A DNA stretch of 38,799 nucleotides from positions 663,141 to 701,939 of the forward strand of contig JBNGIO010006289.1 in NCBI GenBank assembly GCA_049999805.1, given 5' to 3'. Made by a program: the position numbers and the translations under genes. The DNA is from Folioceros fuciformis. Lineage: Eukaryota. Every line of letters begins with the position of its first letter. Within the stretch, counting starts at the first letter, position 1. Positions 2,508 through 38,799 of this stretch are shown one piece after another. The notes beneath the pieces are model-generated. The model saw nothing but the letters and a program-made list of their open reading frames with translations, was not told where the DNA came from and searched no databases.

Positions 2508-4324
2508 TCAGTCGCCGGAAATGCGGTTGTTCTCCGATCCGATGATGTCCGCCAGGTCGTCGGCAAGAGCTTCCTCGCGTCCCAGCACCGTGGTCAGGTG
2601 GTCAACTCCTGGGATGTGCTTGAGGCGAACATTGGAAAAGCGATTGGCCAGCTCAAGGCTGCACTTGGGTGGGCACACACAGTCTTTGTCGCCATACATG
2701 GCCCAAACAGAGCGGCCCGCGTTTTCCAGCACCCTCATGCACTTATCCACAACGTCGGCCCCAGCGCACAGCGTGTTATGAAAGGAGTGCCAGCCTGAGT
2801 TATGTGTGTGGCGCGTGAAGTCCCGTATGAAGGATTGTGGCAGCCTATTCTTGGGAACATGCCACCAGGTGAGCGCAGGGTGAACAATTTAAGACTCGCA
2901 ATAACAATCCGATGGAGGGATGTGGCTCACCAGTGTCCGACCACCTTGGGCACCATGAACAGGAGAAGAGGCTCCCACAGCCGGTGGTTCTTGCAGATGG
3001 TCAAACAGGACAGCCGTCCAACGTGCTCGTACCATGACATGACGGCGGAGCCAAAACACCTCATGGGCCAGACCTTCTTGGGAGCCACTTGACACAAGAA
3101 GTAGTGGCTGCTCCCTCGTACTTCCTCTGGGGCCGGAAAGTAGGGCTGCAATGCACATCACAAAGATGTAGAGAGAAAGCCTCAATGCGTAAGAACAAGG
3201 CCCCGTGGACCAACCTTGTATGCCCACTAATAGGAAGGGAAGGGAAAGCAAGCGAAGGGCAGGGAAGGGAAGGGAATGCATGACCCACCGGAGCTATAAG
3301 AGTGACCGACTGCACTACCCTCGGGTCCTGGGCTGCTAAAGCCAGCGCAATGACGCATCCCATAGAATGACCCACGACGTGAAACTTTTCCACCCCATAC
3401 TTGTGAGCAAGGGATCTCTTGATCATAGTTATCTGATCTGAGATAGTGTATCCAGAGTCCCTGGGCTTGGGACTCTTCCCCCAACCAAGTAAGTCAGGAG
3501 CAAAGAGGCGATACGAGCGTCCTGTCGACTTGGAAAGGTGAGAGAGCACAGCATGACTCCAAAAAGTGGAGGAAGAGAGAAAGCCATGAAGGAAAACCAC
3601 ATTCTTGGTGTCTGGACATCCCACCCCACCATTCCAGTTGCTCTCATTATTCGTGGTGTCTGGACAGGCCACACCGCTGCTGCCGTTGCTGTCCACAGAA
3701 ACATCTGACAACCCACCCTTTTGTCAGTTTACCCTTTTTATCACACACACCACATACCTCCAGCACTCGCAAACGTCACCAACCTTCAACATGAACGTAG
3801 AGATAATCATCTTCGCCCTGCCAGGAAGTGCATTCGTGGCAACTACAATCAGACCAGCAGGTATGATTGGACACCTTGTTGGTGGAAAAGAGCTTCCCAC
3901 CAACCTTGCCCTCCAAGACCCTGCCTTGCACAAGGCCCTTCCTCACCCATTCTGACAAAGCCCAGAGAGCGGACTGCCGACCCCCAAGTGCCTTCCGATC
4001 ACGACCGTGTCTGGCCCCGTACTGTACAGTCTGCGAAGGGTTATTGAATTGCAGACAATCCGCGACGTCATCTTTGCCACTCACACCCTCCAGACCGACA
4101 CTCCCAGAATCCGCACATTCCGTTCCGGATTGCTTGTGGCAGTAGCAAGACGAACAATGAGGGCACCAAATCGAATCAACCACCGCAAACACACAGCAAA
4201 GTAGTCCATCAAGAACATCAAGGTACGCAAACAGAACCAAGCTGCAAAGGTCCACCAGCAAGTCCCTTCCCCTCCACACGATCCAATTCAGGCTCTGCGC
4301 AGAACAAACGGGCCCCGGTCTCAT
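2508..4324 (-). CDS. BDG: BODYGUARD-family alpha/beta hydrolase (cuticle-associated); 4 exons approx. 4324-3784, 3704-3289, 3145-2931, 2844-2508
   Basis: BDG hallmark segments are LFAYLDVLDGLLC...SCYC, WSDCSCHECTSW, VVFLHGFLSSSTFW, APDLLGWGKSPKP, the GHSMG nucleophile elbow, VAPKKVWP..FGSAVMSWYEH, FTRHTHNSGWHSFHN, YGDKD and DHLTTVLGRE. GT-AG junctions join in frame. The start codon is uncertain. Confidence 0.9.
3233..3275. repeat. Degenerate (GAAGG)n pentanucleotide microsatellite in a BDG intron
   Basis: ggaagggaagggaaagcaagcgaagggcagggaagggaaggga. Confidence 0.7.
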
Positions 4325-5739: not shown

Positions 5740-8700
5740 ATGGCAAGGGGAAGAGGATTTCCTAAGCAGAATCCAAGAGTTTGCGAACATTGTAAATTAC
5801 AACAGAATGTAGAAAGCCTGAGGTCAAATACCTCACAGCAATTCGATCTCATGAGTATTCTCATAGATAGAGTCAATTCCCTCAATATGTAGGTTGAGAG
5901 GCTTTCTTCTTCACAGCAAACCTCAGATCCCTCTAGATTCTAAGAGATTGTAGGTCTATCTAAAATGGTTGGTGTATCTTCTCAAATGTCTTGCACCTAT
6001 CAAGTAGACAAACTCACAATCACAAATTATAACATATGAAACATCAAATTAGAAATGCTTCTTAGAGGTTTTGAATTGTGGAGAGTGGTAGATGGTTTAG
6101 AACCTAATCCAAGAAATGTTGATCCTATTGCTTAAGCTGCTTGGCTTCTTAAAGATGATAAGGCCCAGTCTAAAATTCTCATCCATTGTGGAGACAATCA
6201 GATCAAACAGGTTAGAACCATAAAGACCTCCAAAGAGGTTTGGGACAAGTTTAAGGCCTCTTACCTTTAGACCGACACAACATCACATGTTGCAGTAAAC
6301 AAAAAACTACTGAACCTCCAACTCTCCGAAGAGCAACCCCTTCTTGAATTCTTGGATAATTTCCAGGTCATCATGGATGAAGCTGCCCTTGCAAGCCTTG
6401 ATGTTCCTCCACCACAACAAAAAATGATTTTGTTGTGTGCCATGCCACCCAGTTGGGGCCCCTTCCTCACCACACGTGGTGGAAATGCTACCCTAATCGT
6501 TCCTGAACTCATTGGCAAAATCTTGCAAGAATCCTCTATGCGGGGGCTTCTCAACCCAGGATCAGATGCCATCAAACCGATGGCCTTCTTCTCCACCAAC
6601 CAAGGAAAACGCAATCCACAGCAGCAAAAGCCGTCTCACCACCCAGGCGTTGGTGCTGGTGCTTCTACATCGAGCGGCTCTCCCACAAAGCCCAAGATCA
6701 TTTATCATTATTGCCAGAAACTTAATCACACCTCTCTAGAGTGTCAGAAGAAGGCCCGTGACAAGGCTAATGGAACTCTCAAGCCCCAAGCCAATGTAGC
6801 CATCTTTCTTGGTACTACCCTGCATCTGTTTTGTACAACAACCTATCACCACGCGATCATGAGAGACACTTCGTTCTTGGACACTAGAGCGACACAACAC
6901 ATGACTTCCCTACGCGAGTGGTTTACAACTTACTCAACTGCCCCAACTCCGTTTAAAGTTTTCATCGGTGATAATGCATCTCATGAGGCCATAGGTTTTG
7001 GCACCGTCTCTGTAAAACTTCGCACGGGGCACCTTACACCATTAGTCAATATTTTTCACGTTCCAGCCTTAGCACGCAATTTGGTCTTGGTCTGCCAAGC
7101 CACCCAAAATGGCAACACCTTAGACTTTTTCTATGATCACTACGTTGTCAAAACAACCATTGCTGGTGAGCCAGTGACTGTCACATGTCTTCAAAAAGGC
7201 TGCTTATACCTATTAGGTGTAGGCATTTCCAGCAGTTTCACTTCCTTAGCGATCACTAATTCTCCACATGTTGAAACAATTTGTTGGCATTGCCGACTGG
7301 GACACCCAAACTTACAACGTATGAAGGCTCTACAAATAAAATGTTTGGTGACCATCCCAACACCTCCTTTCAAGGATCTGCCCCTCTGTGAGGATTGTGT
7401 GATGGGCAGTCACCACAAGACTCCCTTTCCCAAAAGAGTCACCACTACACCTGACGATCTTCTCGATGTGGTTGTCTCTGATGTATGTGGCAAATACAAT
7501 CTCCTTGAGGTGCCAAATACTTTACGTTCTTTATAGACCTCAAATCTAGGTACACAATCCCTTATTTTTTGAGACAAAAATTAGGAGTCTTCCTTTGCTT
7601 TCAAAAATACAAGCCTCTTGTGCAAAATCAACTAGGTCGCAAGATCAAAACCCTCAAATCTGACGAGGGAGGAGAGTATACTTCTAATAAAATCCCGGCA
7701 TTTTCTGCTACGCATGGCATGAAACGGGAGTTCACCATACCATGCTCCTCAGAGAAAAATGGCAATGCTGAAAGTAAAAACAGAAATCTCCTAAACACTG
7801 CACGTAGCTTGCTTCACACTACTAGCTTGCCTCACTCTTTTTGGCCAGAAGCAGTCAACATTGCTTGTTACTTGCAAAATAGATTGCCTAGCTCTACGCT
7901 ACATGGTCTCACACCCTATCAAGTTTGGCATAATAGGCCACTAGTGTTGAGATGTCACCCCCGCCATGCTCAAAAGAGGTTAAAACAAGTTAGTTGAAGC
8001 AAGATGCAGAATCCCAAAAATAAGAGCACTATAACAAGGCTCTTAAACTCAAATAAAAGGAGAATTACAAAAAACAACACAATGCAAGTGAAGAGGGAGT
8101 TAGACTACAAATACTAGGTGGGTTCATCCCTTCTTTTATGGACCTATGGGTGGCACTCTCATTTCATGCCCAATATGGGATAAATGACCCCAAATCCTAC
8201 AATACCTTTTTGCCTAATATAACAAAGTCTAATAAGCTATATATATTAATCATAACCTTAATCACTCTTACCACTAATTAGTACAAACTCAATAAGCTGG
8301 ATTAGCACTAATTAATCTCAACATTAATCATGCTTAACAACTAGATCTTTCACTTTACGTATATTTGGCTGCCTTGCCTTCTCACACATTCCCGATGATA
8401 AGCGCATGAAACTAGATGCTAAGTTCGAGAATTTTTTTCTACTTGGGTATGGTGAGGATAAAGGTGTCAAAGCCTATCGGCTCCTTGCGGCTGCCAATCA
8501 TAGGATTTTCTACAGCCGGAATGTCATCTTCAACGAAGCAGCTTTGCTTCCAATTGAGGGCAGGGGGGGGACGCTCCCTCCTCAAGCCAAACTCCAATTT
8601 CCAAACTTACAAGTGCACCTAGTGAACAAGCCAATGCAGAAGATGTCATAAGTAAAGAGGTATCCATTGAAGGTGCACCTGTTCAAGCTGCTCCACCGGT

Positions 8701-10708: not shown

Positions 10709-11395
10709 GAGGGAGGGTTGTCAGCCTCTGGTGTGGAGTTTTGTGGCCGTGTGTTGTAATTAATCTTATCTTTTGGGCCCTCATTCTCTACCACCATGAT
10801 TATCCCCCTTCGAAAATTTGGGACTATGTTGTTGGGGACTTTAATAAGGTAGTCCCAAATTTCTCTTTCCTCGTGGTGGCTTTCGTCGACAATGCTTATC
10901 CATTGCTTTGTAAAGAGCATTAATGAGCTTCTTGGCCACCTAGTGGTAGGTCAATTTTTTCTTATTTCGTATTATAATATTTTGGGAGCAATTGGTAGTT
11001 TTGAAAACGATATTCGAAAGGAACTAGTACTTTTGGACTTTCGTTGGAGTACATTGGATTTTTCAAATAAAAAAATAAAAAATAAAGCTTAATAATTCTC
11101 TTAACCCTGTCGATAATGTCATACACGGTGCTCATAAGTTAGCTCTTCCTACCCCATGCCTTACCTGCATAAAGTCGCATGCGGGCATCCACGTCTGCCG
11201 GGAAGCCTGGGCTCGCAACAGAGTGTATTCGGGGCAGGTAGTTTCACGCTATCAGAATGGCAGCCCGATGCGATGCAATGCGAGAGGGGTAAGTAGGAGA
11301 AGGATAGGGAGAGCAGGTGGGGAGGTGGAGCATCGGTGCGGGAGCTGCAACGGCCAAGTAACCGCGCCCAAGCCCGCCTGCTTTCCCCGGCTGTG

Positions 11396-12634
11396 ATGGG
11401 TGCCGCGAAGCGTAGACGGAGGGCCGTGTGCCTCGTACTGCTGGGTTCGGCAGTACTGGTGTTGGCCATGGTGCTCACCACCGTGTTCCTCTTGAGAGAC
11501 AGCACTGAGAACACGATTGCGGAGCTGGCGGACCCGGACGTTGTTCTGCCGCCTTGCGTTCCCCGCGGGTACCTCTGCTCCGGCCTCCACTGCTGCAACT
11601 TGACTGTGGAGGAAGTGTTCTCCAGCCAGGACTTCGACGCCTTCTTCCCTAATCGCAACTGCCCCACCTGCCACGCCCAGGAGTTCTACTTCTACTACAA
11701 CTTCATCGAGGCCGCCAAAATGTTCTACCGGAAGGGTTTCGGGATCCTTGGGGGCGAAGAGATGCAGAAGCGGGAGATTGCGGCATTTCTGGCGCACGTT
11801 GCGCACGAGAGCTCATGTGGGTGTGGATCCGGTTCACCTGCTGCTGCTGCATTTGGCTTGGAGTGGAGTGAGGCTGAATCGCGTTTGTTTTACTCTTGTT
11901 TCCGCATCCAGGTGGGTATACGGGAATAGGGTCGCTGGGTGGAGCGTACGCCTACGGGTTGTGCTGGAATGTGGATCCCAACTTGGATAGCCTGCACTGC
12001 ACGCCGGATGTGTCGTACCCGTGCGTGCCCGGAGTCAGTTACCATGGGCGAGGAGCTATGCGTGTCTACGGGTAAGCAAGCGAGCAAGCATTGCCCACAC
12101 CTCCCCTGTCTGTCCTAACCTCCCGATGAATTGTATGGGTTGTGGGGCTCATGGAGCTGCTTTGCTTGGCCACAGTCGGAAGGGGTTCACTATTCTACTG
12201 CTCTGACTGTGTCTGTGTGCGATGGCTGTTGCATGAATGGCAGCAACCAGGAGTACGGCTGGATTGGGGAGGGTTTGGGTTTGGACCTGCTCCATCACCC
12301 TGAGTTGCTTCAAAACAATGCAACTCTGGCATTTGCATCTTCTTTGTACAAGTGGATGACAGAGCGGCCTGGCCGGCCATCGTCTCACAATGTCATGTTG
12401 GGTGCATGGAAACCCTCACAGAATGACACGTTGGCAAGCAGACTTCCAGGATTCGGACTGACGATCAACATATTGGCGCACAAGGAATGTGGGCATGGAG
12501 CTGATACCAACATGAATGACCGCGTTGCTCACTACAATGTCTTCCTGGGTTTACTAGGCAACGTACCTTCGGGAAACAATACGGAGTGTGGGAATCAAGG
12601 AGAATGGATCCCTCCCCAAGGTTCCTTTCTGTGA
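11396..12634 (+). CDS. GH19 chitinase-like protein (CTL1/CTL2-related) with an N-terminal signal anchor; exons 11396-11816, 11912-12071, 12244-12634
   Basis: MGAAKRRRR is followed by a hydrophobic helix. CTL-type segments are C...CCNLTVEEVF, GFGILGGEEMQKREIAAFLAHVAHESSCGY, YGLCWN, YPCVPGVSYHGRGA, DLLHHPELLQNNATLAF and WKPSQNDTLASRLPGFGLTINIL. GT-AG introns join in frame. Confidence 0.88.
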
Positions 12635-14750: not shown

Positions 14751-15614
14751 AAAGCTGACCAAGTCAAAAAAAGAAAAGTTGTTGTGAGGAGGAAGATGGT
14801 TGGTGTTCTGGCTCTAAAGAACTAGAAGCGTACGAAACCGCGTTCTGGGTAAAGCAGTCGGCTAGGCCCTTTATTCAAACAACAAGGCTTGGGACGAGGT
14901 GCTGGAGTAGACTTTCCATTCAAACTATGCTAGCCAGGCCTGCCAATTCTGAAACAACGTCAGCGACAAAACCGATAGAACTTCACGTGCTAGCTAGATA
15001 TTATTTTGACGAATGTGTAGGGAACACGGAATGTTACGTGGGTATGCAGTATCTGCATGACGCGTACAGATCCCTACCCTGAAGCCTACAGAAGCTGGGC
15101 AAGCTGAACACTGTCCATCGTGCACCTGAGTTGGGTACGTTTCCAGGCGATGAGCCCAGAACAGGACTACTTGGTTCGGAAGCGCAGCTCCCGGCACGTG
15201 GTGTGCGCAGGCGGCCCGGCGGGAGGTTCCTGTCCGAGGTGTAACACTATGTGTTGCATATATAGACATAGCAGGCAACAAGGTGGGGTCCCCTTCTTAA
15301 AGCTTGGTTATGACAGCAGCCGCATGTGGAGATTGTTGACTCTGTCTCAGCTCGAGGAAGTATCCTCTTGGAATCTGAGTCCTGACCTGACCTGGGTTGA
15401 CATGACTAAATTACTGCACCTGCTGGGATCGCCACGTACTGTCGCCAATGCACACCAAGCAGCAAAACACCGACGATCGCGCTTCACAGCAACCTGGGCC
15501 TGTCCCATAAATCGCGCCCATCTCACGCATTCCATCCAGGGCTTCTGTCCGCCTGCCTGCTTGCCTGGGCATCGTTCCAGTGAAGGAGTTTGACATCATC
15601 TGCCGACGCCGCTC

Positions 15615-16905
15615 ATGGCCGCCTCGTCTGCAGCAACGTGTGTTGCCCGCGCGGCCGTCATCGTCGTCTTCGTATCCGCGCTTCTTCCCTTCTCCACCGC
15701 AACCTCCTACGAGGTGTGTAGTGCTGTGTGCTGAATGTTCGCAGGCTGATTCCTGCTCTGGCTTGTTGTAGCCTTAGGGATGCCCAGGCAGCTAGGATTT
15801 GATTGGATCCCGGGCGTCTGTCTCACACGTGGCTTCCCGTCTCGCTTGCATATGCGCAGGCAGGAGGGTCCAGTCTGAGGAAGCAGTTGGCGGAGGCGAA
15901 GCTCAAGGCCTCCTACATCATTACCAAAGACATCTACAACGAGTTCCTGTTGCACAGGAACGATCCCGCCTGCACCGGCGCCAACTTCTTCAACTACTCT
16001 GCCTTTGTCCAGGCCACCAAAACGTTCCCCACGTTCGGGACCACTGGCTCCCTCCCAACCCGGAAGCGAGAGCTGGCGGCCTTCTTCGGCCAGACCTCGC
16101 ACGAAACTACAGGTGAAGGATGACACACTCAGTTGCTGGCCATGGCGTTGTCTGATAAATAATGCCACGGTCCCGCTGCTGGGATGCGTTGCTTTCTTAC
16201 AAGCTTGTTGCATTACCATGCACGGTGATGATAATTGGTACGCTGGTCCGTTGCAGGTGGCTGGGCTACCGCACCGGATGGCCCCTACGCCTGGGGCTAC
16301 TGCTTCAAGGAGGAGATCGACCAGAGCTTCGACTACTGCCAGGCCTCCTCTGAGTGGCCTTGTGTGGCGGGGCAGAAGTACTACGGCCGTGGTCCCATAC
16401 AGATTTCCTGGTACATGACTTCTCAACCTCACACCGCTTGCCAGTGCACCGTCGAATGCTATGGCTGCAGTTTGTGTGTCTTGTCACTCGCTCTCAGTGC
16501 ACGGGTCTTGACGTGGGCAGGAATTACAACTACGGGCCAGCCGGAAAGAGTTTGGGTTTCGATGGGCTAGGTAATCCAGGCTTGGTGTCCCAGGACGCTG
16601 TGCTGTCCTTCAAGACAGCCTTGTGGTTCTGGATGACGCCACAGAGCCCCAAGCCTTCCGCCCACGACGTCATCACCGGGCGATACAAACCCACAGCGGC
16701 GGACATCGCTGCCAATCGCCTGCCCGGCTACGGTCTCCTCACCAACATCATCAACGGCGGTTTGGAATGCGGCCCAGCCAACAACCCGGGAGGAGTGGCA
16801 AATGCCTACCAGGAGGACCGCGTCGGCTTCTACGAAAGATATGCCAGCATCCTTGGCGTTGACACCGGCTCCAATCTCTACTGCACGTCGCAAGCCAGCT
16901 TCTAG
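15615..16905 (+). CDS. GH19 endochitinase without a hevein domain (class II-like), secreted; exons 15615-15713, 15860-16112, 16257-16410, 16521-16905
   Basis: Signal peptide [29 protein letters not shown]. Motifs [56 protein letters not shown] and [11 protein letters not shown]; both catalytic Glu residues are intact. Confidence 0.97.
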
Positions 16906-19468: not shown

Positions 19469-19864
19469 TTTTGTCTTTTGTTGGTAACCCGATTATCTAG
19501 GAGTGCCTGGTGTTCTCGAGGGTGTGGTAGCCTTGGGTTTGGAATTGTGGACTGAAAAGTGCGGCATTTTTTTGTCGGGGCACTCACTTTGTTGCAACGT
19601 GGAAGTGACCTAGTCCTTCCGGTTGCTTCGGAGAAAGGGGTGTTTCTTGTCCTCTTCGGTCCTGCCGCCATTTCATAGGTACTGTACTACGTTGCCCACA
19701 TTTGAAATGTGCCACATCAGCGCACCAACCCATGGAGTGGTTGGGAAGTGAGGTTGGGCCGCAAATGTGCCGGCAACGCCGGCCTGCAAGGCCAGGCGAG
19801 GTAGCCTTCGCCTTCGGGTCTACTCTACGCGGAGCTTTGTCCTGCATCCTTGCGCGGATATAGG

Positions 19865-19940
19865 TATAAATTGGAGGCAAGGCAGAGCCGAGCTGAGCTG
19901 AGCAGAGTGGAGCAGAACAGAGGAGAGCAGAGCAGGGTAG
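19865..19940 (+). promoter_or_regulatory. TATA box followed by a degenerate (GAGCA/GAGCT)n pentamer tract upstream of the SLC1/DAACS gene
   Basis: TATAAAT at 19865-19871, then gcagagccgagctgagctgagcagagtggagcagaacagaggagagcagagcag. A possible 5'UTR intron runs GTGAGT(20067)...CGCAG(20159). Confidence 0.4.
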
Positions 19941-20210
19941 AGGCGCTTGGAATTACGGTGCCTTGACTCATCTTCGAAATTGACGCACGAGTGTTTTGCA
20001 GTTCAACCGGATCTGACTATGTGACACGCAATTTGCCTCATCTCCAGTCCATCGCCAGCTTGTTGGGTGAGTCACAGACGCACTTCTGGCCCACGTACGG
20101 GAATAAACCCAGCTCTATTCTTCCACTGGAGTGAAGCTTTTGCCTGTGGGTCGTCGCAGGGACTTATGTAGCGCCAGGGAGGACGCGAGCTCGGAGTTTC
20201 CCATTTTGCA

Positions 20211-22640
20211 ATGGCGGATGAGATTCATTCCGCTGTCACCGTGAATGGGGACTATGAGCATGGCCGTGGTGAGTCTGGTTTGCTGGAGCAATTTTTTGGC
20301 CCGACGCTTCGCTCGCCCAGTCCCATCATCCGCCTCCCCTTGTTGCGATGCAGAAAACACGAGTGCCAGGAAATCCCTGTGGAGGAGGTTTGCGGACACA
20401 TGGCTGCAGAGGAAGAAGCTTGTCTGGTGGACTATGCTGGGCGTTGTGTGTGGGATTGCCCTGGGTGGTGGGCTCTACAGCGTGAAACCATCAAGTCGGG
20501 CTGTGGAGCTCATAGGTAAGGCACCAACCTAGGCCCATCCCGCGTCACAAGCCTGCTCCTTTGTTGCTCCAGTGGGAGCTCCGTTCACAGCAAGTGGCTG
20601 TGATGGGCATTCGCAGGCTATCCGGGAGAGCTGCTGCTGCACGCGTTGCAAGAGCTCATCTTGCCTCTCATGACATTTGCGATCATGTCTGGTGTCTTCA
20701 GCTTGCGCCACACTCAGACAGGGTGAGATAGATATTCCATACCAATTGCATCACACCCACTGCCAGGGGTCCGTACCTTCAGTCCTTACCATTGCCTGAT
20801 TTTGTAGGAGCGGGAAGATTGCCAAATGGTCCATTTTCTACTACTTCATCTCCATGATACTTGCCATCGCCGTGGGGATATTGATGGTGTTCACTGTCAA
20901 GCCAGGCCACAGCAAGCCTTTCGACGACGCTGGGCTGGGAAAGTGCAGCCACCAGAATCAGAACTTGGTCAACTCCACTGCGTAAGTGAGCATTCTCAAT
21001 AATGGCCTGCTTGTGTTGGCGTCCGCAAGCACTTGCGACCTGCAATCGTATGACGGTGTCCATCCAAATCCTGCTGTCACGTTGCAGAAGCTCCTCCAGC
21101 ACAGCCACAAACACGGTGGACTCGTTGCTGGATATTGGACGGCAGCTCATCCCCACCAACATAGTGGCTGCTGCAGCTGCCCCGAATTACTTGGGTGTCA
21201 TGATGTTTGCCATCGTGTTTGCATTCTACCTCACGTCGCTGGGTCAGTTAGCTCTCCTAAGCTCTCAAGTCCTGGTCTTGCTTCTTTTTGCTGTGCTGCT
21301 CACTCCTCCAGGCCATGGGGACCCATTGTCAGGTCCAAGAGCGGAGCCTCTAATTCAGCTCATCGAGCTTGCCAACGACGTGATAGTGAAGATTGTAAGG
21401 CTGCTTGTTCCACGTATCATCATCTTGCAAGCATGTAGGCCCAGCTTGATGTGAGAGGTCACCTAAACGGCGGCTTGCAGATAAACGCCGTGATCTTGAC
21501 GACGCCCGTGGGGATCGCATCGCTCATCGCTGGCACCATCCTGTCAGCCTGCAACCTGGGCCACCTGCTGAAGGCACTGGGGGAGTATGTGGGTACCATC
21601 GTGGGGGCGTTTGCCGTGCACATGTTCGTGGTGCTGCCCCTCACCCTGCTCTTCATGTCACGTAGAAATCCCATCAAAGTTTTCAGGTGACGATCCACTC
21701 GCACTGCACGCAAGTATGCACCACTGCCATTGCCATTGGCCTACAGTGGAGATATGGTCGTAACTCACATGTGGCGTGCAGATCATTTGTGCCAGCTTTC
21801 ACAATGGGGTTCGGAACATCGTCCAGCGCTGCAACCATGCCCGTGACTATGCAATGCGCGGAAGCCTACGGTTGTCTTAAGCACATTGTGAAATTTGTGG
21901 TGCCCTTGGGCACCAACGTCAACCGCGATGGAACCGCATTGTATGAGGCCGTGTCAGTCATCTTCGTGGCTCAGGTGCGTACACACTCGTCACAGACATT
22001 CACCACATTGCACGCATTCCGCACACCGGAACGTAGTCTACCATTTAGGGGTGCCCCACGCAACCCAAAGTGGCTTGAATCCATCCCGCGTTCTATGTAC
22101 TCTGCCTGGCAGGCGCACGGGAGGAATCTTTCCGCGGGCAACGTGATTGTCATCTCTCTCACAGCTTGCCTGGCTGCCATCGGCTCGGCTTCAATCCCAC
22201 ATGCGGGCCTGGTCACATTGATCACCGTCATGCAGGTACGTCACGAGTATTCCTTCACTGTGTCGGTCGCGGTGCAAATGCGGCTCCAAGTTTCACTCAG
22301 CCCTTCCGCGGCTTTCTCAGGCAGTTGGATTTTCGGAATACATCGCCGATCTGTCCATCCTCTTCGCGGTGGACTGGCTGCTCAGCATGCTTCGCACGAT
22401 CGTGAACATCTGGGGAGATGCCTGCGCCTGCGTCGTGGTCGATGCCTGGGCGAAACTCGCGGACAAGGAGCGGGGTGTTCCGCTCGCACTCGCGGTCAGT
22501 GACCATCATCGCGAGGAAACACGTTTCTTTGACGTTTGCTCCCTCCCTTGCCGGACACGCCATTAACTCCAGCTGTTGTTTTCTTGTGCCCCGTGCAGTC
22601 CAAGCTGGAGGAAGCCAAAGCTGGTGACGAGCAGTTGTAG
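20211..22640 (+). CDS. SLC1/DAACS (dicarboxylate/amino acid:cation symporter, EAAT/GltPh family) transporter; 11 exons: 20211-20268, 20354-20515, 20617-20722, 20808-20981, 21088-21242, 21333-21394, 21481-21686, 21782-21974, 22113-22235, 22321-22494, 22599-22640
   Basis: All ten GT-AG junctions join in frame. Family motifs are GYPGELLLHALQELILPL (TM2), YYFISMILAIAVG..VKPG (TM3), IPTNIV, TPVGIASLIA, HP1 FGTSSSAATMPVT, TM7 VVPLGTNVNRDGTALYEAV, HP2 AAIGSASIPHAGLV and TM8 AVDWLLSMLRTIVNIWGD. Confidence 0.95.
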
Positions 22641-23620
22641 AAGGCGACTGATGGACTACCTTCTAGCCTTTGGCGTTCCAATATTGCTTTTGAATCTTAC
22701 CGGCCTTCCTCTCCATCGTTCTCCGTGTTCCGAGCACACTCCGCATGTGTGACTTGCCGCCAGCAGCTCTGCTGAGGTTCTGTGGTTTGAAGTATCGTCC
22801 TCTTCCTCGCCATCGCCATGCCCTAGAAATTGCAGACTTAGACCTAACGCCTGCGCCGTGTACATATGTACATACATGCACAACAAGAGGTCGGACGCTA
22901 AGGCATTTGTACAATAAATGAATGCGAATAAAGGAAGAAAAGGCTGGCAGGGCTTTGCTCCCGCTGCAGGCGCACTGATGCTTGGTGCGCCTATTTTTGA
23001 CACGTTCCTTCTTGCTGGCGTCAGGAAGTGGCGCCGAGCTTGGACGCTCGAGACCCGGCTTACGAGTTTACGCGTTGCGCCCGACGCGACCGGCAAGGGC
23101 CGCAGGTGTTTGCTGGGCCTGGCCAGCTCTTCGCTGTTGAAACCTCTTCTTCCTTCCGCTCCTCGATTTGCGGCGCTGCCTTTCGGGACTGATTCACTGC
23201 TATACCACCCTGCAATGTGCGACGCGATCGGCGGAATTTGCAATCTTCAAATCTGTGATAGCCTGCTACGATCGATCGTCCATCATCGGGGATGCGTTGA
23301 GCACACGCTGTTACCTTGGACTCGGCTTCAGTGAGTGTGGTCGTGGAGACGGGATCTGACGCAACGTACCGTTACTCGTTCGGAGGACTCATTTGAAAAT
23401 GGGGGCTTCTTTGCCAGGGCCATCCGTACAGTGACAGCAGAGTGCGACTCCAGAACGGGCGATGGAGAATCATCCGCGGCAGAACAAGTCGGCTGAGCAG
23501 TCGGCACGGGCAATTTGCGAAAAGAGAGGGACGAGCGGCCTGGGGAGCGTTGCAGATTGACTCAATTTAGCTTGTTGCCAGCAACGGAACCCGGTTAAGG
23601 AGGAGAGCACGACCAGCAAT

Positions 23621-25816
23621 ATGGGGGAGAGCTCTCTCAAGAAGAAGACGGGGATGGGATGGGCCTGGTGGGGGCTTACAGTAGTGGTGGTTGTGGCTGT
23701 CATTGCTGCAGCATTGCTGGCCATGAAGTACAGTAAGAACAGGAAAAGTTCCCATGGGGCGGAAGGCGGGGCGCTCATACCCTACAACTCACCCTACACG
23801 CCTCTTCCGGATCCCTCCATCAACTTCACCCAGGCTCTCGGCGTTACTCTTACCTTCTTTGACGTTCAAAAATGTACGCTTCCTTTGCTCTTGCATTGTA
23901 GGCTGGATGCGCTTGGATTGGCATTGTCCTGACCTGACCGCTTGTGCTGCTCGCCTCAGCTGGAAAGCTGCCTGCGGGGCAACCGATATCTTGGAGGAAT
24001 GATTCTGCGCTACAGGATGGGCAAGATGCCGGGCTAGATCTGACTGGAGGGTTGTACGATGCTGGGGATCACATCAAGTTTGGCTTGCCAATGGCATACA
24101 CTGGAACGGTGCTCGCCTGGGCAGTCCTCGAGTACAAGCAACAGCTGGAAGCTGCGGGGTTGCTGCCGCAGATCTTGGATGCTATCCAATGGATCACGGA
24201 CTTCCTCATTAAGGCCAGCCAGACTGAGAACGCATACTACTTTCAGGTAGGCGCGCATGTCGAGATCCGGCCTCTGGCCTTGGTTGAGGAATGTGTGCTA
24301 ATTAATGGCTTCTTCCCGGCCTGACACAGGTGGGAGATCCGCAAGCTGATCATGTTTGCTGGGTTAGAGCTGAGGATCTGGGAAGTATCTCCAGGCCTTC
24401 ATATCAAGTGAACGCCTCTGCTCCAGGTACCCTTGGTTGCCGCCAGCCTTCCATACCTGACCCAGGTATGGCTGCCAAGAAGAGCGTAGGTTGAATGAAT
24501 GCCATGGCCTTGACTAAGTTAGCGTGCAGGTTCCGATGTTGCTGGGGAAGCTTCAGCCACTCTGGCAGCTGCGTCCCTCGTCTTCCGATCCTTCAACTCC
24601 TCGTACTCGCAGACCCTCCTGGATCATGCTACACAGCTCTTCGACTTCGCTGACACATATCGGGGTGCATATAGCCGAAGTTTGCCATCGGTGGTGGAGT
24701 TCTACAACTCGACAGGCTACGTTGACGAGCTGCTGTGGGCGTCTGCGTGGTTGTACTACGCAACGGATGATTCCAAGTATCTCAATTACGTAACGGTGAC
24801 TAATGGCGCCAGGTTCGCGCGATGGGGAAGCACCGGGTGGTTCAGCTGGGACGACAAGCTTCCTGGTGTTCAGGTCTGGAATAATTCCCCGAGCTTCACT
24901 ACAGACAGGGACAATTGAGGAGGAGACGAGACTGACTGATTTGTATTACGACAGGTTCTTCTGGCAAGGGCCCTACTGGTGAACCCAGCTCCTGCTCAGC
25001 CAATGGACGCAACGACAACCACGGACCTGAAGAGCTACAAGAAGACTGCAGATGACCTTATGTGTTCTCTGCTCCCAGACTCTCCTACAGCAAGTCATAA
25101 CCGCACGAAAGGTCTGTTACTTTTGCTTGCAATTGGTGGAAGAGGTTCCAAACTGGGGCTCGTGCTGCAGCCTCACCGTGGCATTCCAACAGGTGGTATG
25201 CTGTGGATCAGCGAGTACAACTCAGCCCAACACGCAGTGAGCTCGGCCTTCCTGACCATAGTTTACAGCGACTACCTGCTGGCCAGCAAGCAGAACGTGA
25301 CCTGCTCGAACCGGATCTTCACACCCCAACGACTGAGAGAATTCGCAACCACTCAGGTCTGACCTAGCGGAGCCCGGTGCCTTGTTCTTTCCCTTCCTCA
25401 GCAATTGAATGCGGCATGTGTGAAGTGAAACTGACTGTCCCCACCTGGTGTCTTGGGCTTTGCTGTGGCAGGCCACATACCTGTTGGGATCAAATGCCAT
25501 GAACACAAGCTACCTGGTAGGATACGGAAAGAACTTCCCACAGTTCATCCATCACAGAAGCGCCTCCATCCCTTCCTACAACCACACCACCTGCCAAGCC
25601 GGCTTCTACTACCTCTATGTCGACCAACCCAACCCCAACGTCGCCACCGGAGCCCTGGTAGGCGGTCCCTTCCTCAACGACTCCTACACCGACTATCGCC
25701 CTAACCACATGCAAAACGAGCCCACTACATACAATAGCGCGGCGCTGGCGGGCCTCCTGGCCGGCCTCTCGTCGGGCCTGGGTGTGGGCGTTGCCGTGCC
25801 CCCCACTTTCGCTTGA
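23621..25816 (+). CDS. GH9 endo-1,4-beta-glucanase with an N-terminal membrane anchor (resembles the Arabidopsis GH9B5/GH9B7 type), about 7 exons
   Basis: A short basic N-terminus precedes the TM segment WGLTVVVVVAVIAAALLAM. Motifs are FFDVQK|SGKL-like, DLTGGLYDAGDHIKFGLPMA, QVGDP..DH.CW, YNSTGYVDELLWA, FSWDDKLPG, YLLGSN..SYLVGYG..P..IHHRSASIP and catalytic D.R.NH.QNEPTTYN. Confidence 0.95.
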
Positions 25817-28959: not shown

Positions 28960-29481
28960 TTATATCTTTCCGGTTCCCTCCGGACCTGGCTCTCCTCCCT
29001 TTTGTGGAGCCCTCTTGATGGGCAGCAAATCAGCAGACGAGCTAGCACCGACGTATCCCACAGAACCAACGGCCGCCAAGATGAGGAACTTCAACAATAA
29101 ACCCCGCTTGGTAAACAGACCAGCGAAGGTCTCAAAGAACTTGCTCTGCATTCCCATTGAATGACATAGTCAGAAATTAAGAAAAGCACGCAAGCCCGGC
29201 AATCTCAGATTCCAAAGCGGCGCGACAGCGACCTGGAGGGAGTTGTATGGTGATGGGCCGTCGGAGCCGTAGAGATCCCATTGGCCTGTGGTGTTGGCGA
29301 TGTCACCGAGGTCGAAGTAGACGCTCTTCTCCCCATACTTGGCGGTGGCGACTCCCACCTTCCGCGTGGGGGCTTTCATGGAGACGGAGCGGGCAGACGA
29401 GACAGCCAGCCTCTGTCCAGCAATGCTGCTGGAGCCCAGGCGCGAGGCCGTTGGCAGCGAGAGAGTGGTCATGGCCGCCAT
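28960..29481 (-). CDS. PSAH: Photosystem I subunit H precursor; exons 29481-29233, 29145-28960
   Basis: Transit peptide followed by [60 protein letters not shown]...DLLPIK. Confidence 0.97.
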
Positions 29482-29633
29482 AGATCCCGCCGCTGCTCCC
29501 ACCCAAACTTGATAGACGATAGTCCTCGAGCACGTCTTGACGGAAACAGGCTACAATCTGGGATGTGCTGGTGAAGAAAGTGCAGGCAGTCGGGAACTCA
29601 GCGAGCAGCCTTCCTTCCCCTTTGATTTCCAAG

Positions 29634-34172: not shown

Positions 34173-35315
34173 TGTATATATAGGATTGATCTAGGAGCTA
34201 CATGGTGAAGGAGAGGAGAGGAGGAGGAGAAAGAGAGGTCACACTCTCACAATGAGTCTCACACAATGAGTCTCTCACTATAGCAAGGGAGCTCAAGGGG
34301 GTACTTATACCCTCTAGAAGAGCTGGCTAGGAAGCTGCGCAAGAAGCTTCCTATAGATTAGCTTAAGCTAATCTAAACTAATGATACTTAACTAGACACT
34401 AATCTTAGACTAAACACATTAGTCTAAGCACATTGGGCTTTAATAACCCTACAACCTCCCACTTAAAGGCCAATTTACCTTTATAGGAGAGTGGTCTACC
34501 TCATGCCCATGACTGTCCGAGCTTGTGCAAATTGCTCCGAAGAGAGCCCCTTGGTAAGAACATCTGTAGGGTTCTGACTAGTGTGAACTTTGACAAGTTG
34601 TACCCTCTTGTCTTCCAACACCTCTCGAATGAAGTGATACTTCACTTCTACATGTTTGGTCTTCGCATGAAACACTGGATTCTTTGCCAATTGAATAGCA
34701 CTCTAGCTATCACAATGCAACAATGGCAGCTCAACCTTGATCCCCAAATCTCCCACTAAACGAGCAAGCCACATGGCTTCCTTGCACGCCTCAATTGCTG
34801 CAACATACTCGGCCTCTGTGGTAGATAGCGTTATGCACGATTGCAAACGAGATCGCCATGAGACTGCCCCTCTTGTGCACATGAAGAAATAACCTGATGT
34901 GGACCTCCTTTTGTCCATATCCCCTGCATAATCAGCATCCGTATATCCCACGACAGATGCAACTTCACTACCAAAACATAAGCACAAAGCTTTTGTACCA
35001 TTCAAGTACCTCATACCTCCTTTCACTGCCTCCCAATGCTTTCTGCGAGGGTTTGACATAAACCTGCTAACCACTCCCACTGCAAAGGCAATGTCAGGAC
35101 ATGTAGCAATCATTGCATACATCAAACTCCCTACAGCTGATGAGTATGGAACCTTCTCCATTTCAGCTTTGTCCTCCGCAAAGCTTGGGCAATCCTTGCT
35201 CGACAGTTTCACATATGGAGGCAACGAAGTACTCAATACCTTCCCCTTCTCCATATTGAAACGTTGAATCACTTTGTTAATGTATTCAGTCTGAGACAAG
35301 TAAAGCAAATGCTTC
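34173..35315 (-). mobile_element. Second copia element: RT C-terminus, RNaseH, PPT and 3' LTR (about 34173-34453)
   Basis: LYLSQTEYINKV...VPYSSAVGSLMYAM...YTDADYAGD...LSTTEAEY...CDS*SAI.LAKNPVFHAKTKH...DVLTKGL. The PPT AAGTGGGAGGT precedes TGTAGGG at 34453. The distal LTR end is approximate. Confidence 0.88.
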
Positions 35316-38300
35316 TGTTTATCAAGACATGGACTAGGATCGGCCGAACAGGAGCGAAACGTGCGTGAGAAAAAGATTGTGAATTATGTTGTGTCCGTCG
35401 GCCTTTGTGGTCGCGCGAACAGGAGGTCGGTACGGCAGTTAGCCGTTACCTAGCAGTTGGTCGTTGGCCTTCTGCCCATATAGCTAGGGTAGCGTTTCGT
35501 ATCTAAATATGTAAAACCCTAACTAGCATAAGTGTTCGAGTATTAAAGTAATTAGGGCACAGCCCTTTTCTAACACTCCCACTTGCTCGACACTTTGCGC
35601 CCGCCGCCAGCCTCCGGCAGGAAACATGAATCTTGGCTAGATGTCTCCGGTTTGGATCTGGATGGCCTGCCTTTTGCTTGTCGCTGGAATCATTGCTAAG
35701 CTCGAGAGAGCGTGCTCCGCATCACGCCGCCAGCGTCCTTCTTCAGATTGCCTTGAAGGCTTGTAGCGCCTTCCAAAGTTTTCTCGATGTCCAGAGTTGA
35801 ACATGTTGTTGGAGCAGGCAGAGATCGGCCGGAATGGCAGCTTGGCACTTCATTACTCTCCATGGTTCCGCGAGGATCTTGAGTGAGCTTGAATTTCCTG
35901 CAAAACAAACAGCATGCACCCATCCTTTTGTGCAGCTACCCTGGTGAGGTGCCGCCCTGACCAGTAATTGGTTTGTCTGTGAGGCCAAGGCCGGTGCAGT
36001 GCTTGTCGTGCTTATCTCGTGAGAGTGGCTTTGTAAATATGTCCGCTGTGTTGTCATCTGTGGGGACGTACTCTAGGTGGATATGCCTATCTGCTATTGC
36101 TTGCCGTATGAAATGAAACCTAACATCTATGTGCCTCGTGCGTGCGTGCATGACCGGATTCCGAGACAACGCGATGGCGGACTGATTGTCACAGAATTTG
36201 GTCGTTGGCTCAGGTTGTGTCATCCCGATGGAGTCCAGCAAAGCTCTTGCATGCAGCACTTCCTGTGTGGCCGATGTCGCTGCTATGTACTCTGCCGCAG
36301 TGGAGGACAGAGCAACGATTTGCTGCCTTTTACAGGTCCAAGAGATGGTGCTCCCACTCAAAATCACACAAAAAGCCGTGACCGACTTGCGAGTATCCTT
36401 ATCTCCTGCCCAGTCCGCATCATTAAAGCAGGCTAAAGTAGGAGGTATCTTGCCTGGCTGATGCTTGTACAGAAGGCCAAGCTTTGGATGCAATTTTAGG
36501 TATCTCAAAGCTCTCTTTGCCTTCGTCCAGTGCTGCTGTCTAGGGTTAGATATATACTTCGAAATGTTGTGAGAAGACAGAGCAAGATCCGGTCTCGTCC
36601 AGCCACTCAGCCAGACTAGGCATCCTGCTAGTTCGCCGTAGGGAATGCCTAACATCTCCTACCTCTCCTTGTCTGTAGTAGGTGCCTGGTCCACCGAGGA
36701 AAAGTCTCCCACTGCGAGAGGTGTACTTACAGACTTGCAGTCCTTCATGCCGAACTTTTCCAGGAGCCTGTACACATAATGCTCCTGATGGATAAAGATA
36801 CTCGAGTCAACCAGGTTGACGATTGCTGGCACTCCCAGGAAAAACTTGACCATGCCCAGGTCAGTGATTTTGAATTCTGAGGACAGGATGTCCTTCACTT
36901 TCTGCATGATCTTTGGTGCACTTGCAAAAATTAGCGTGTCATCAACATAGAGAGCGAGGTACGCCACCGCATCCCCTTCTCTCAAAATATAAACATTGCC
37001 ATCTAATGGTGATTGTACAAAACCTGACTTGATCAAGTATTGATGGATGCGATTGTACCAGGCTCTTGGAGACTGCTTCAGGCCATACAATGTCTTCTGT
37101 AGCTTGCAGAAGTGATTCGGATGGGACTTACTGACGTAGCCCTCCGGCTGCTCCATGTAAACTTCTTCTTCTAGGGTACCATTTAGAAAGGCGGTTTGTA
37201 CATCCATTTGGTGCACTTGCATCTTCATTTGTACAGCAACAGCCAGCAGTGCCCTTACAGAGGTAGACTTCACAACAGGAGAGAAGATCTCATTATAATC
37301 GAGGCCTTCTCGTTGTGACAACCCTCGCACCACTAACCTTGCTTTGAAGCGACTTGTGCTCCCATCAGGATGGAGTTTCCGCTTGAAGACCCATTTGCAA
37401 GTAATGGGTTGTCTGCCTGGAGGAAGAGGGCGCAGCTGCCAAGTATGGTTGTCGATCAAAGACTGATACTCTGAATCAATAGCAGCCTACCACTCTTTGT
37501 GCTCCTTTGAAGTCAAAACTTCCCGGTAGGACGCGGGTTCACCCAAATCTTGTGCAGCCATCAACGCTTGCGCCAGGAGAGCTCTGTGGGACACATTCGC
37601 TGCAGGCTGGGTGGTCTCCTCCACTACAGGCATACCTTCATGTCCTTCGTCTTCTGCAGCAGGTAAGACTTCGACGTGTACTTCTTCGACTGCTGGCAAA
37701 ATTGATGGCTCCTTTCTCCCCCATTTGACAGCAGGCCGAGAGAATGTTGGTGACAGTGGGGGCTCCTTCCAGTCAGCTGAAGAGGTAGTGTGATACCTAG
37801 TAGACCGTCTTGGTGCTCCCACTGCAGCTGGAAAGGGAATAGGCTCCTCAACCGCAGCCACACCACCCTCATTGTCGCTGTCCTCCTCGAAAAAGCTGAC
37901 GTCTCCCGGGGGTAAGTCAGTCTCTCCCTGAACGCCTGCCTCTGCATTGGTTGTGTTAGCAGGTTCATGATCCCCGTCATAGCTGTGAGAGTCACTGTCA
38001 CTGTCACTGTCACTGTCAGATGAAAGCTGACTATTGTTCTGAACATTGCTAGGCATGCTACTTGTACTACTACTGCTAAACAACGAATTTGTAGCTTCAC
38101 TATCTGACGAGCTACTCTGTGAATTATTGTTCTTGGACGTCTTGGAGCTTGAATCCAGAACATAGTGATCGTCAAATATGCCGTGCCGAGAGTAGCTTGT
38201 CTTTCGAGTTGTCGGATCGAAGACTTTATATCCCTTAATGCCCTCCGTGTAACCCACAAACAGCAGTTTGCGTGCCTTGTAGTCCATCTTCCGCCTAGTC

Positions 38301-38799
38301 TGTGTGGGGACATGGATATACACTGGTGAGCCGAAAACACGGAGGTGAGCTATTCGGGGCTTATGACCTGTCCAACGTTGATAAGGTGTCTCTCCAGTGA
38401 ATGCTGATGTTGGTAGTCTGTTCTGGATGTAGGTCACAGCTGAGACTGCCTCTGCCCAGTATCCTCGGGACAATTGGGCCTGATGGAGCATCGTCTTAGC
38501 ACCCTCTTGTATGTACCGATTCTTTCTCTCTGAAAGGGGGTTCTGGTCAGAAGAGTAAGCCACCGTAAACTGCCTTGCTATGCCTTCCTTCTCACAGTAT
38601 GCCTTGAAATCGCCAAGGGCCAGCTCACTAGCGTTATCACTTCTCAGGCTCTTCAGTTTATGGCCTGTAAAACGCTCCGCATACTGTATGTACCTAACAA
38701 ACATGTCTAACGCCTGACTTTTATGTGACAGAAAATATGTCAGGGTATAACGACTCCAATCATCTACAATGACCATGAAATACTTGGCCCCACCAAACG
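35316..38799 (-). mobile_element. Third (youngest) copia element: integrase, RT, RNaseH, PPT and 3' LTR (about 35316-35575); runs off the window
   Basis: One reading frame IVDDWSR..LRSDN..SERKNR / WVFKRK..KARLV..YGLKQSPRAW..LYVDD / DADWAGD..ADIFTKPL, broken only by TAG codons. PPT CAAGTGGGAG at 35585-35576, LTR TGTTAG...AAACA. Confidence 0.93.

Follow-up and report, generated by a model that had tools for sequence, protein, structure and literature searches.

An SLC1-family carrier gene of non-seed plants belongs to a green-lineage clade with changed substrate- and cation-site residues

Few membrane transporters are as well understood as the SLC1 carriers of animals, archaea and bacteria. To our knowledge the usual plant transporter inventories, which are built on Arabidopsis, do not include this family, and we know of no SLC1/DAACS member in the Arabidopsis transporter inventories themselves. 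A 38,799-nucleotide stretch of DNA (contig JBNGIO010006289.1, positions 663,141 to 701,939 of the forward strand; this whole stretch is hereafter called the window) carries a gene of this family at 20211-22640 on its + strand, and this raises the question of how a plant came to have such a gene and what its product may transport. The answer that we reach is that the gene belongs to a clade of green-lineage proteins, here called clade I, whose substrate and cation sites have been remodelled, and that its product may well be a carrier of organic acids.

The gene was modelled from the letters at 19800-23200 and their stop-to-stop frames, open pieces of the + strand being joined at GT..AG sites. 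The model has 11 coding exons that together make 1455 nt, running from the ATG at 20211 to a TAG at 22638-22640 and encoding 484 amino acids in a spliced frame without internal stop (Table 1). All ten coding introns are of the GT..AG type and measure, in order, 85, 101, 85, 106, 90, 86, 95, 138, 85 and 104 nt, with a GC content of 47%-59%. Intron 5 has two in-frame acceptors, at 21311 and 21332; a model that uses the former (model A, 491 amino acids) was rejected, as its seven extra residues occur in none of 17 homologues and the spliced contigs described below use 21332. Coding GC is 56% and third-position GC 70%, both computed on model A. When exon translations were searched singly, seven of nine matched Pfam SDF (PF00375), with E values from 0.021 to 1.2e-22 and in the order of the 387-position profile (stretches in Table 1), an agreement that well exceeds chance; exons 7, 8 and 10 each reached the gathering score on their own, and exons 2 and 6 gave no Pfam match. 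The first-pass annotation had described a complete 11-exon gene with plant-style introns, and we find its coordinates right, its frame open, its introns GT..AG throughout and its ten coding joints present in a spliced contig.

The nearest protein, P0001, comes from Nothoceros aenigmaticus (EukProt EP00246) and is 79% identical over 391 aligned columns, or 81% over 387. The PDB was searched with this orthologue in place of the window protein, to which it is 79-81% identical, and it matched 45 distinct sequences, the best being EAAT1 (E 2e-65), followed by EAAT2, EAAT3, ASCT1, ASCT2, an 'aspartate transporter' and GltPh/GltTk near 1e-36. The window protein itself is 36-37% identical to the animal rows and the nearest bacterial rows of our alignment, 39% to a second algal clade described below, and 24.6% and 26.6% to DctA and GltP of E. 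coli, respectively. PF00375 is carried by all of the homologues, and the motifs GYPGEL, GTSSS, LYEAV and IPTNIVAAAAAPNYLGV were all found in the predicted protein; the serine-rich tip of helical hairpin 1 (HP1) reads GTSSSAAT, with SSS in nearly all rows. We conclude that by its sequence the protein is a member of the SLC1/DAACS (Pfam SDF) family and an elevator-type secondary carrier, for which homology predicts a trimeric elevator architecture. Placement in a bacterial equivalog group was tried and rejected, all NCBIfam scores being far under the cut-offs (513-638): four green-lineage proteins scored 153-185 bits with the DctA models NF002461 and NF009587 against cut-offs of 513 and 570, and the better of these, NF002461 (171-185 bits against 513), was barely over the score of the GltP model.

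To describe the binding site, residues were counted in a 64-row alignment with 26 clade I rows and 38 others, of which 15 are animal. The motif of transmembrane helix 7 (TM7; other helices are named likewise) reads NRDG in 26 of 26 clade I rows, the window having NRDGT, and in none of the 38 others; NMDG is found in all 15 animal rows and in five of seven environmental bacterial rows. In TM8, animals and bacteria have the pattern D-W-x-x-D-R-x-R-T-x-x-N-x-x-G-D, and clade I has D-W-x-x-(G/S/A/C)-M-x-R-T-x-x-N-x-W-G-D. The second Asp of the former is thus present in 0 of 26 clade I rows, where Gly stands in 21, Ser in two (S435 of the window, and Nothoceros), Ala in one and Cys in one, the remaining row being an aberrant Selaginella model. 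It is present in 36 of the 38 other rows, including E. coli GltP, TcyP and SstT, the exceptions being E. coli DctA (Ser) and one Hydra protein (Gly). The third change lies in TM3: at the pair aligned with T-T of EAAT1, 26 of 26 clade I rows have S-M, and T-T stands in 13 of the 15 animal rows. A PLxxSS stretch considered as the Na3 site was set aside because it lies on a different helix by the EAAT1 alignment, and the YY..TT stretch was counted instead.

Other parts of the site are kept. Clade I retains the SSS of HP1, the N/D/G and T/A of TM7 and the Arg, Thr, Asn and final Asp of TM8; the Arg (R438 in the window) is found in all 25 clade I rows with an alignable TM8, the TM7 Thr is Ala or Ser in many orthologues, and a Tyr-Glu pair (LYEAV in the window) is present in 26 of 26 rows. 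A motif scan of 316 collected proteins, 18 of them unreadable and the window protein not included, found NRDG in 44, all of clade I, with the TM8 Asp in none of the 36 that had a readable TM8; NRDG was found in 0 of 141 new 50%-identity representatives. Outside the NRDG set the TM8 Asp was absent from only four proteins, one of which is a clade I fern fragment reading NLDG. We conclude that, in the sequences compared, the three site changes are fixed, linked and private to clade I. Two proteins outside clade I, P0120 (Hydra) and P0283, have Gly at the Asp position and keep NMDG; P0283 is a protein of 4596 residues with an SDF domain near 3633-3891.

What these positions do can be taken from well-studied relatives. 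The second TM8 Asp reportedly binds the alpha-amino group of the substrate; in keeping with this role, DctA, whose substrates lack an amino group, has Ser there, and the amino-acid carriers GltP, TcyP and SstT have Asp. The Tyr-Glu pair of TM7 we take to be linked to H+/K+ coupling. In a study of GltTk (Guskov et al., 2016; PMC5110648), the Met of NMDGT moves to become a Na2 ligand and is the centre of a triangle of aspartate, Na1 and Na2, and Na3 is coordinated by the motif's Asn and Asp and by a pair of TM3 hydroxyls, which in rat EAAT3 are those of T101 and T102. Two further papers state that the distal carboxyl is bound by the Thr of the motif and by the TM8 Arg (Arkhipova et al., 2019; PMC6482001) and that changing the TM8 Arg to Cys makes GltPh a neutral amino-acid carrier (Scopelliti et al., 2018; PMC5750217). 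The triple change of clade I falls at positions tied structurally to Na2 and Na3 and, by the role reported for the Asp, to the amino group. These clade-specific changes in the substrate and cation sites had been overlooked in the first-pass annotation, and they argue against a plain EAAT-like glutamate carrier.

The same annotation had called the protein a mosaic, with EAAT-like motifs and without the long TM4 insertion of animal EAATs. Both observations hold; however, the missing insert is not a mosaic trait, as all non-animal members are without it. Counted between the NIV and NYLG columns, the insert has 5 residues in the window protein and 32-77 in 15 of 15 animal rows; it has 5 in all other green rows except one truncated algal row (0), and in the bacterial rows 5 in nine of 11 and 8 in two. 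On this alignment, the long TM4 insert is an animal novelty.

We then asked where clade I occurs. With exon 8 as query 77 proteins were found at E 1e-3, and with P0001 as query 918 at E<=1e-40, of which the best 120 were listed. Orthologues at 51-61% identity among these 120 come from liverworts (Riccia, Marchantia polymorpha, M. paleacea and Calypogeia), mosses (Physcomitrium and Ceratodon, two genes apiece), lycophytes (Selaginella and Diphasiastrum), streptophyte algae (Klebsormidium and Mesotaenium) and trebouxiophytes (Coccomyxa and Elliptochloris); fern orthologues were found in Adiantum and Ceratopteris, and one from Pteridium was identified separately. The Selaginella protein P0093 (454 amino acids) departs from all relatives from HP2 onward and looks like a frameshifted or mis-spliced model, for which reason the second tree set described below does not include it. 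A second green-algal group follows at 38-43% identity to P0001 (Pleodorina, Volvox, Micractinium, Trebouxia, Symbiochloris and Botryococcus), with animals and bacteria next. Common and characterised angiosperm orthologues had been named beforehand as a finding that would speak against a system of non-seed plants, and no seed plant is named among the best 120 of the 918 proteins in this search of proteomes. This absence carries weight because the same database gives mostly angiosperms for a neighbouring chitinase, which serves as a positive control: its exon query found 1004 proteins at E<=1e-30, and the named rows in the best 120 are nearly all angiosperms. Seed plants appear to lack clade I, although, as proteomes and the best 120 rows were used, this is not proof. 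A profile of 22 clade members, compared with 1.84 billion representatives, found 15,977 relatives at E<=1e-3; only two representatives scored high, at 794 and 611 bits, with the next at 464, a gap that shows clade I to be a distinct and closely knit group. The representatives that follow are Chlamydomonas incerta, Myrmecia, Chloropicon, Prasinoderma, Euglena longa and Diplonema.

Quick trees were made from 64 rows and from a second set of 61, and a careful tree from the 61-row set, its root set by the E. coli pair and its support given as ultrafast bootstrap / Shimodaira-Hasegawa-like approximate likelihood ratio test. The second set lacks ten rows of the first (SstT and TcyP of E. coli, Rhodocyclus, the aberrant Selaginella c, Volvox, P0102, one Micractinium, Littorina, Adiantum nelumboides and Riccia sorocarpa) and has seven new ones (Chlamydomonas incerta, Myrmecia, Euglena, Diplonema, two Chloropicon and Prasinoderma). 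In the careful tree the window protein pairs with Nothoceros (2 rows, 100/100), and the pair joins a liverwort group of M. paleacea a and b and Riccia (5 rows, 99/98). A second land-plant group holds lycophytes, ferns, mosses, M. polymorpha and Calypogeia (13 rows, 97/91); all land plants form one clade (18 rows, 100/98), and with Klebsormidium, Mesotaenium and the trebouxiophytes they make up clade I (23 rows, 100/100). Above this stands a group of the green lineage and Euglenozoa (38 rows, 100/99), which is sister to the animals (52 rows, 97/92), with the bacteria outside (100/100). The animal clade has a support of 99/98 without the window protein, which is a member of its sister group and is not nested within it. 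Both quick trees agree with the careful one. Long branches were flagged for Diplonema, Prasinoderma, DctA and two planctomycete rows, and odd composition for four algal rows; for these reasons, and because the root was set by the E. coli pair, the deep order is to be read with care.

The tree agrees with an old, vertically inherited gene of the green lineage that was lost before seed plants arose or within them, and it does not agree with transfer from bacteria. The earlier proposal had left open whether the gene was ancestral and lost or anciently transferred; the former fits better, as clade I lies within the green-lineage group that is sister to animals and not among the bacteria. That clade I is present in streptophytes and in three trebouxiophyte rows could be explained by an early origin with many later losses or by a single transfer between alga and plant, in either direction.

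We also looked for signs of transcription. Among 23 public sequencing runs listed, X1 is a DNA run in which one collinear contig spans the stretch, and it may be the source of the assembly. For runs X3, X5 and X16 the RNA kind was guessed, not being on record; X3 has the same species label as X1 and comes from a different study. The share of sampled words present in X3 was 0.49, which is expected of spliced mRNA because coding sequence accounts for 1455 nt, or half, of the 2901-nt stretch. It can be seen that an X3 contig of 6017 nt, with a depth of 243 and zero mismatches, has the ten coding introns removed at the exact positions of the model. It also joins across an intron at 20067-20159 in the 5' untranslated region (UTR), so that the transcript has at least 12 exons, 11 of them coding. 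Contigs from two other species labels share, among the joints listed, eight (X5) and six (X16) of the ten coding joints, the remaining ones being off by a few inserted letters or outside the rows listed; these contigs differ at many bases (likeness bands 90-95% and below 90%). A form without introns at high depth, alongside a DNA contig that has them, is the picture expected of transcription. Lack of a transcript had been the other finding named as speaking against the gene, and what was found is this spliced contig with the same species label, the RNA kind of the run being guessed; the contigs give no expression level, strand or transcript ends.

A second SLC1 paralogue was noticed in the genome, on a 4509-nt X1 contig with a depth of 10.2 (10.5 for the main contig), which matches the window at 21907-21965 (59 bases, 6 differences) and then diverges in both directions. 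An intron interrupts it at the same codon position, and a spliced form occurs in the RNA-like runs X3, X5 and X16. Since its flanking letters resemble moss and liverwort proteins of group B, the A/B duplication may predate hornworts.

What might the protein carry? In family assignment, expression and evolutionary placement taken alone we have very high confidence. To the whole reading, in which these are joined by a function as an organic-acid carrier that is probably H+-coupled, we give a probability of roughly 0.5. By this proposal the Met of NMDGT, which would lie between substrate, Na1 and Na2, has become Arg; the TM8 Asp that would hold the amino group has given way to Gly, and in the window to the Ser that E. 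coli DctA also has; and one of the putative hydroxyl ligands of Na3 in TM3 has become Met. The substrate would be an anionic organic acid without an alpha-amino group, most likely a C4-dicarboxylate (malate, succinate or fumarate), whose two carboxylates could be met by two arginines. Coupling to Na+ would be weakened and, the Glu being retained, transport would probably be driven by protons, as one expects at a plant membrane. The place of Na2 may be taken by the new Arg; an Arg that stands in for a cation is known from other transporter folds.

The protein probably enters the secretory pathway and resides in the plasma membrane, rather than in plastid or mitochondrion, because a sequon in the TM3-TM4 loop is conserved and the N-termini of fern and lycophyte proteins are very short, which argues against a transit peptide. 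The sequon (N164-S-T in the window) is present in 22 of 26 clade I rows, including 21 of 21 land-plant rows, against 9 of 38 others, and the loop that bears it is presumably extracellular, as in the family topology; a loop Cys is found in 25 of 26 clade I rows. Before TM1 there are only 6-21 residues in ferns and Selaginella, and the window protein has six acidic residues in this region.

Several points weigh against an organic-acid carrier of this kind. Substrate and coupling ion are read from residues alone, and the reported role of the Asp is backed here only by the contrast of DctA with GltP, in which there is a single dicarboxylate carrier; in solved carriers, backbone carbonyls also contact the amino group. 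One animal EAAT-like protein, from Hydra, likewise has Gly at the Asp position, which leaves room for amino-acid transport. The Arg of TM7 could disturb the site rather than bind substrate, and, as the Tyr-Glu pair and the motif Asn and Asp remain, some Na+ or K+ coupling is possible. The 24.6% identity to DctA and the low score with its models mean that the whole sequence is not 'DctA-like'. Finally, the RNA nature of X3 is a guess.

The alternative that survives best is that of an ordinary Glu/Asp carrier like the EAATs or GltP, in which the changed residues only tune affinity or ion coupling. Such a carrier would be expected to keep the TM8 Arg that selects acidic side chains, which all 25 clade I rows with an aligned TM8 do, and the TM7 Thr (Ala/Ser in many orthologues), the SSS of HP1, N442 and the Tyr-Glu pair are kept as well. 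Among solved structures EAAT1-3 come closest, overall similarity does not decide between DctA and GltP, the Hydra EAAT-like protein shares the Gly, and in public records the orthologues go under 'Amino acid transporter' or 'excitatory amino acid transporter 4-like'. However, these names are automatic, and none of the 26 clade rows has the Asp, which 36 of the 38 others do have, among them every E. coli amino-acid carrier compared. DctA, the only characterised carrier without this Asp, takes substrates without an amino group, and the loss of the Asp is coupled with the gain of an Arg at the centre of the site. We consider a plain Glu/Asp carrier unlikely, while giving it more weight than the other alternatives.

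Less probable again is a protein for another anion (a tricarboxylate, a keto-acid, or a sulfo- or phospho-compound), or one that acts mainly as an anion channel or sensor through the uncoupled anion conductance for which the family is known. The pocket is poorer by one negative charge and richer by one positive charge than that of EAATs, which would suit a more anionic or larger substrate, and the family is chemically broad, its E. coli members being annotated as carriers of dicarboxylates/orotate, Glu/Asp, Ser/Thr and cystine. However, there is no specific pointer to any such substrate, elevator-machinery residues and the two hairpins show the conservation of true carriers, and the idea of an anion conductance is drawn from EAAT biology only. 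Bacterial contamination, recent horizontal transfer and a dead or silent gene are all scarcely credible. In their favour, the family is mainly prokaryotic and animal, and bacterial DNA in the sequencing data as well as some transferred genes are reported from hornwort genomes (PMC7027989), but the gene has an open frame of 484 amino acids and 11 GT..AG introns, including that of the 5' UTR, all spliced in the contig of depth 243, two further species labels share six (X16) and eight (X5) of the ten listed coding joints, plant genes lie on both sides, and the protein sits inside the land-plant clade with the bacteria outside at 100/100.

A stronger version of the organic-acid reading can also be put forward, which we hold to be rather doubtful. 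Clade I would be a plant-specific, Na+-independent, proton-driven di-/tricarboxylate carrier that evolved from an EAAT-like ancestor. The Arg would be a tethered cation that fills the place of Na2 and pairs with a carboxylate of the substrate, with the amino-binding Asp lost, organic acids (malate, citrate) would have replaced amino acids as substrates, and seed plants would have lost the gene once other organic-acid carriers took over. If this were true, the protein could serve the carbon supply of the cyanobiont in hornworts, or an apoplastic organic-acid economy.

In full-text literature searches, some of them poorly aimed, no paper on the SLC1/DAACS family in plants was found, and two papers that do name DAACS (PMC3237598, PMC5176271) treat it for diatoms and oomycetes only. 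The main text of two hornwort genome papers contains none of the terms 'dicarboxylate', 'amino acid transporter', 'symporter' and 'glutamate', although their supplements could list the family. The first-pass view that the system is undescribed in plants holds as far as papers were found, and fails in that orthologues are already in public databases under their automatic names. The new part is the binding site, which defines a distinct and conserved SLC1 subfamily; the family itself is known, and this is no new kind of system. Non-seed plants keep an expressed SLC1 member with at least two paralogue groups, and clade I offers a natural experiment in the switching of substrate class and ion coupling within an elevator fold. 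It also points to a transport activity in bryophytes, lycophytes and ferns that crops appear to lack.

The other features of the window are listed with the exons in Table 1. The window is plant nuclear DNA; as the first-pass annotation had held, the gene lies among plant genes and is not bacterial contamination, with two GH19 chitinases, a GH9 glucanase, PsaH and copia elements nearby. The host is most likely a hornwort of a genus other than Nothoceros, because the nearest relative is the Nothoceros protein, and this sister sequence from N. aenigmaticus agrees with what had been guessed about the host. The most identical row to the chitinase among its best 120 is a EukProt transcriptome entry, at 70%. 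A fourth exon of the glucanase may be indicated by a weak match at 24940-25362. The second copia piece runs off the end of the window, and long open reading frames at 34703-36658 (-) may belong to it. Between 30000 and 34000 there is an AT-rich block with a GC content of 32-40%, against 45-60% elsewhere, and no long open frame.

Table 1. Features of the window, in window coordinates
Feature	Position	Strand	Remarks
alpha/beta-hydrolase, weak further piece	2508-2888	-	
alpha/beta-hydrolase exon	3061-3723	-	PF00561, E 1e-24
Ty1/copia piece	6271-7997	+	the two Ty1/copia pieces: gag-pre-integrase, integrase core, RVT_2, retroviral SH3-like domain
GH19 class I chitinase gene, first of tandem	11297-12634	+	
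GH19 class I chitinase gene, second of tandem	about 15100-16905, or about 16354-16905	+	
SLC1 gene, 5' UTR exon	20000-20066	+	true start farther upstream; X3 contig covers 20000-20066, then joins 20160
SLC1 gene, 5' UTR intron	20067-20159	+	93 nt, GT..AG; GTGAGT at 20067, AG at 20158-20159; X3 joint
SLC1 gene, start-codon exon	20160-20268	+	coding exon 1 = 20211-20268, ending in phase 1
SLC1 gene, coding exon 2	20354-20515	+	basic N-terminal stretch and TM1; joints 20268/20354 and 20515/20617
SLC1 gene, coding exon 3	20617-20722	+	GYPGEL and TM2; SDF 29-58, E 0.021; joints confirmed
SLC1 gene, coding exon 4	20808-20981	+	TM3, S124-M125 at Na3 ligand positions, start of extracellular loop; SDF 63-102
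SLC1 gene, coding exon 5	21088-21242	+	loop with N164-S-T sequon, TM4 without animal insert; SDF 104-151
SLC1 gene, coding exon 6	21333-21394	+	joint 21242/21333 in X3, X5 and X16
SLC1 gene, coding exon 7	21481-21686	+	TM5-TM6; SDF 174-239, E 6.9e-9; joints confirmed
SLC1 gene, coding exon 8	21782-21974	+	HP1 GTSSS, TM7 N355-R356-D357-G358-T359, Y362-E363; SDF 242-305, E 1.2e-22
SLC1 gene, coding exon 9	22113-22235	+	HP2; SDF 307-345
SLC1 gene, coding exon 10	22321-22494	+	TM8 with D431, S435, R438, T439, N442 and D446; SDF 348-387
SLC1 gene, coding exon 11	22599-22640	+	C-terminal tail and TAG; joint 22494/22599
SLC1 gene, 3' UTR	22641-22900	+	minimum length; X3 contig unbroken to 22900
GH9 glucanase	23938-25816	+	directly downstream of transporter; three exons PF00759, E 1e-29 to 4e-36
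PsaH (photosystem I subunit VI) exon	29170-29550	-	PF03244, E 6.5e-30; nuclear gene of green lineage
Ty1/copia piece	36659-38797	-	domains as for 6271-7997

How, then, does the protein compare with systems already known? With the animal EAAT1-5 (SLC1A1-3/6/7) and ASCT1/2 it shares the fold family, 36-37% identity over the whole protein and a sister position in the tree (97/92), along with the motifs GxPGE, HP1 SSS, the N.DGT frame of TM7, ALYEAV with the Tyr-Glu pair, and the Arg, Thr, Asn and Asp of TM8. It differs from the EAATs in having no TM4b-c insert and a longer TM3-TM4 loop (about 30-35 residues) with a sequon, and in standing outside the animal clade; moreover the Met of NMDGT is Arg, the TM8 Asp is Ser or Gly with the following Arg changed to Met, and the T-T of TM3 is S-M in the clade.

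The nearest proteins outside clade I are those of the second green-algal clade (Chlamydomonas, Pleodorina, Micractinium, Trebouxia, Chloropicon and Prasinoderma), which are 38-43% identical to P0001 and 39% to the window protein, fall in the same green-lineage group (100/99), rank directly below clade I in the profile search and likewise have no TM4 insert. In contrast to clade I they keep the Met and the TM8 Asp-Arg, are mostly NMNG and are longer (530-740 amino acids). In these mostly NMNG proteins (P0095-P0110, P0176) the motif Asp, a Na3 ligand in GltTk, has been lost, which looks like a separate, independent change of ion coupling.

The archaeal aspartate:3Na+ carriers GltPh and GltTk share the architecture and match P0001 at E about 1e-36 over nearly the whole of P0001. 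GltTk has a Met ligand for Na2 and two TM3 hydroxyls for Na3, whereas the window protein has Arg and S-M at these places, and where it has the proton-linked Glu the archaeal carriers presumably have Gln. From E. coli, DctA is a C4-dicarboxylate/orotate:H+ symporter and GltP a Glu/Asp:H+ symporter. Both belong to the same Pfam family as the window protein, and neither has a TM4 insert or the Met of NMDGT (both read NLDG). They differ from it in lacking the Tyr-Glu pair (YL and YQ), in having Asn for the final TM8 Asp and another HP2, and in their distant place in the tree; DctA is like the window protein, however, in having Ser at the amino-binding Asp position.

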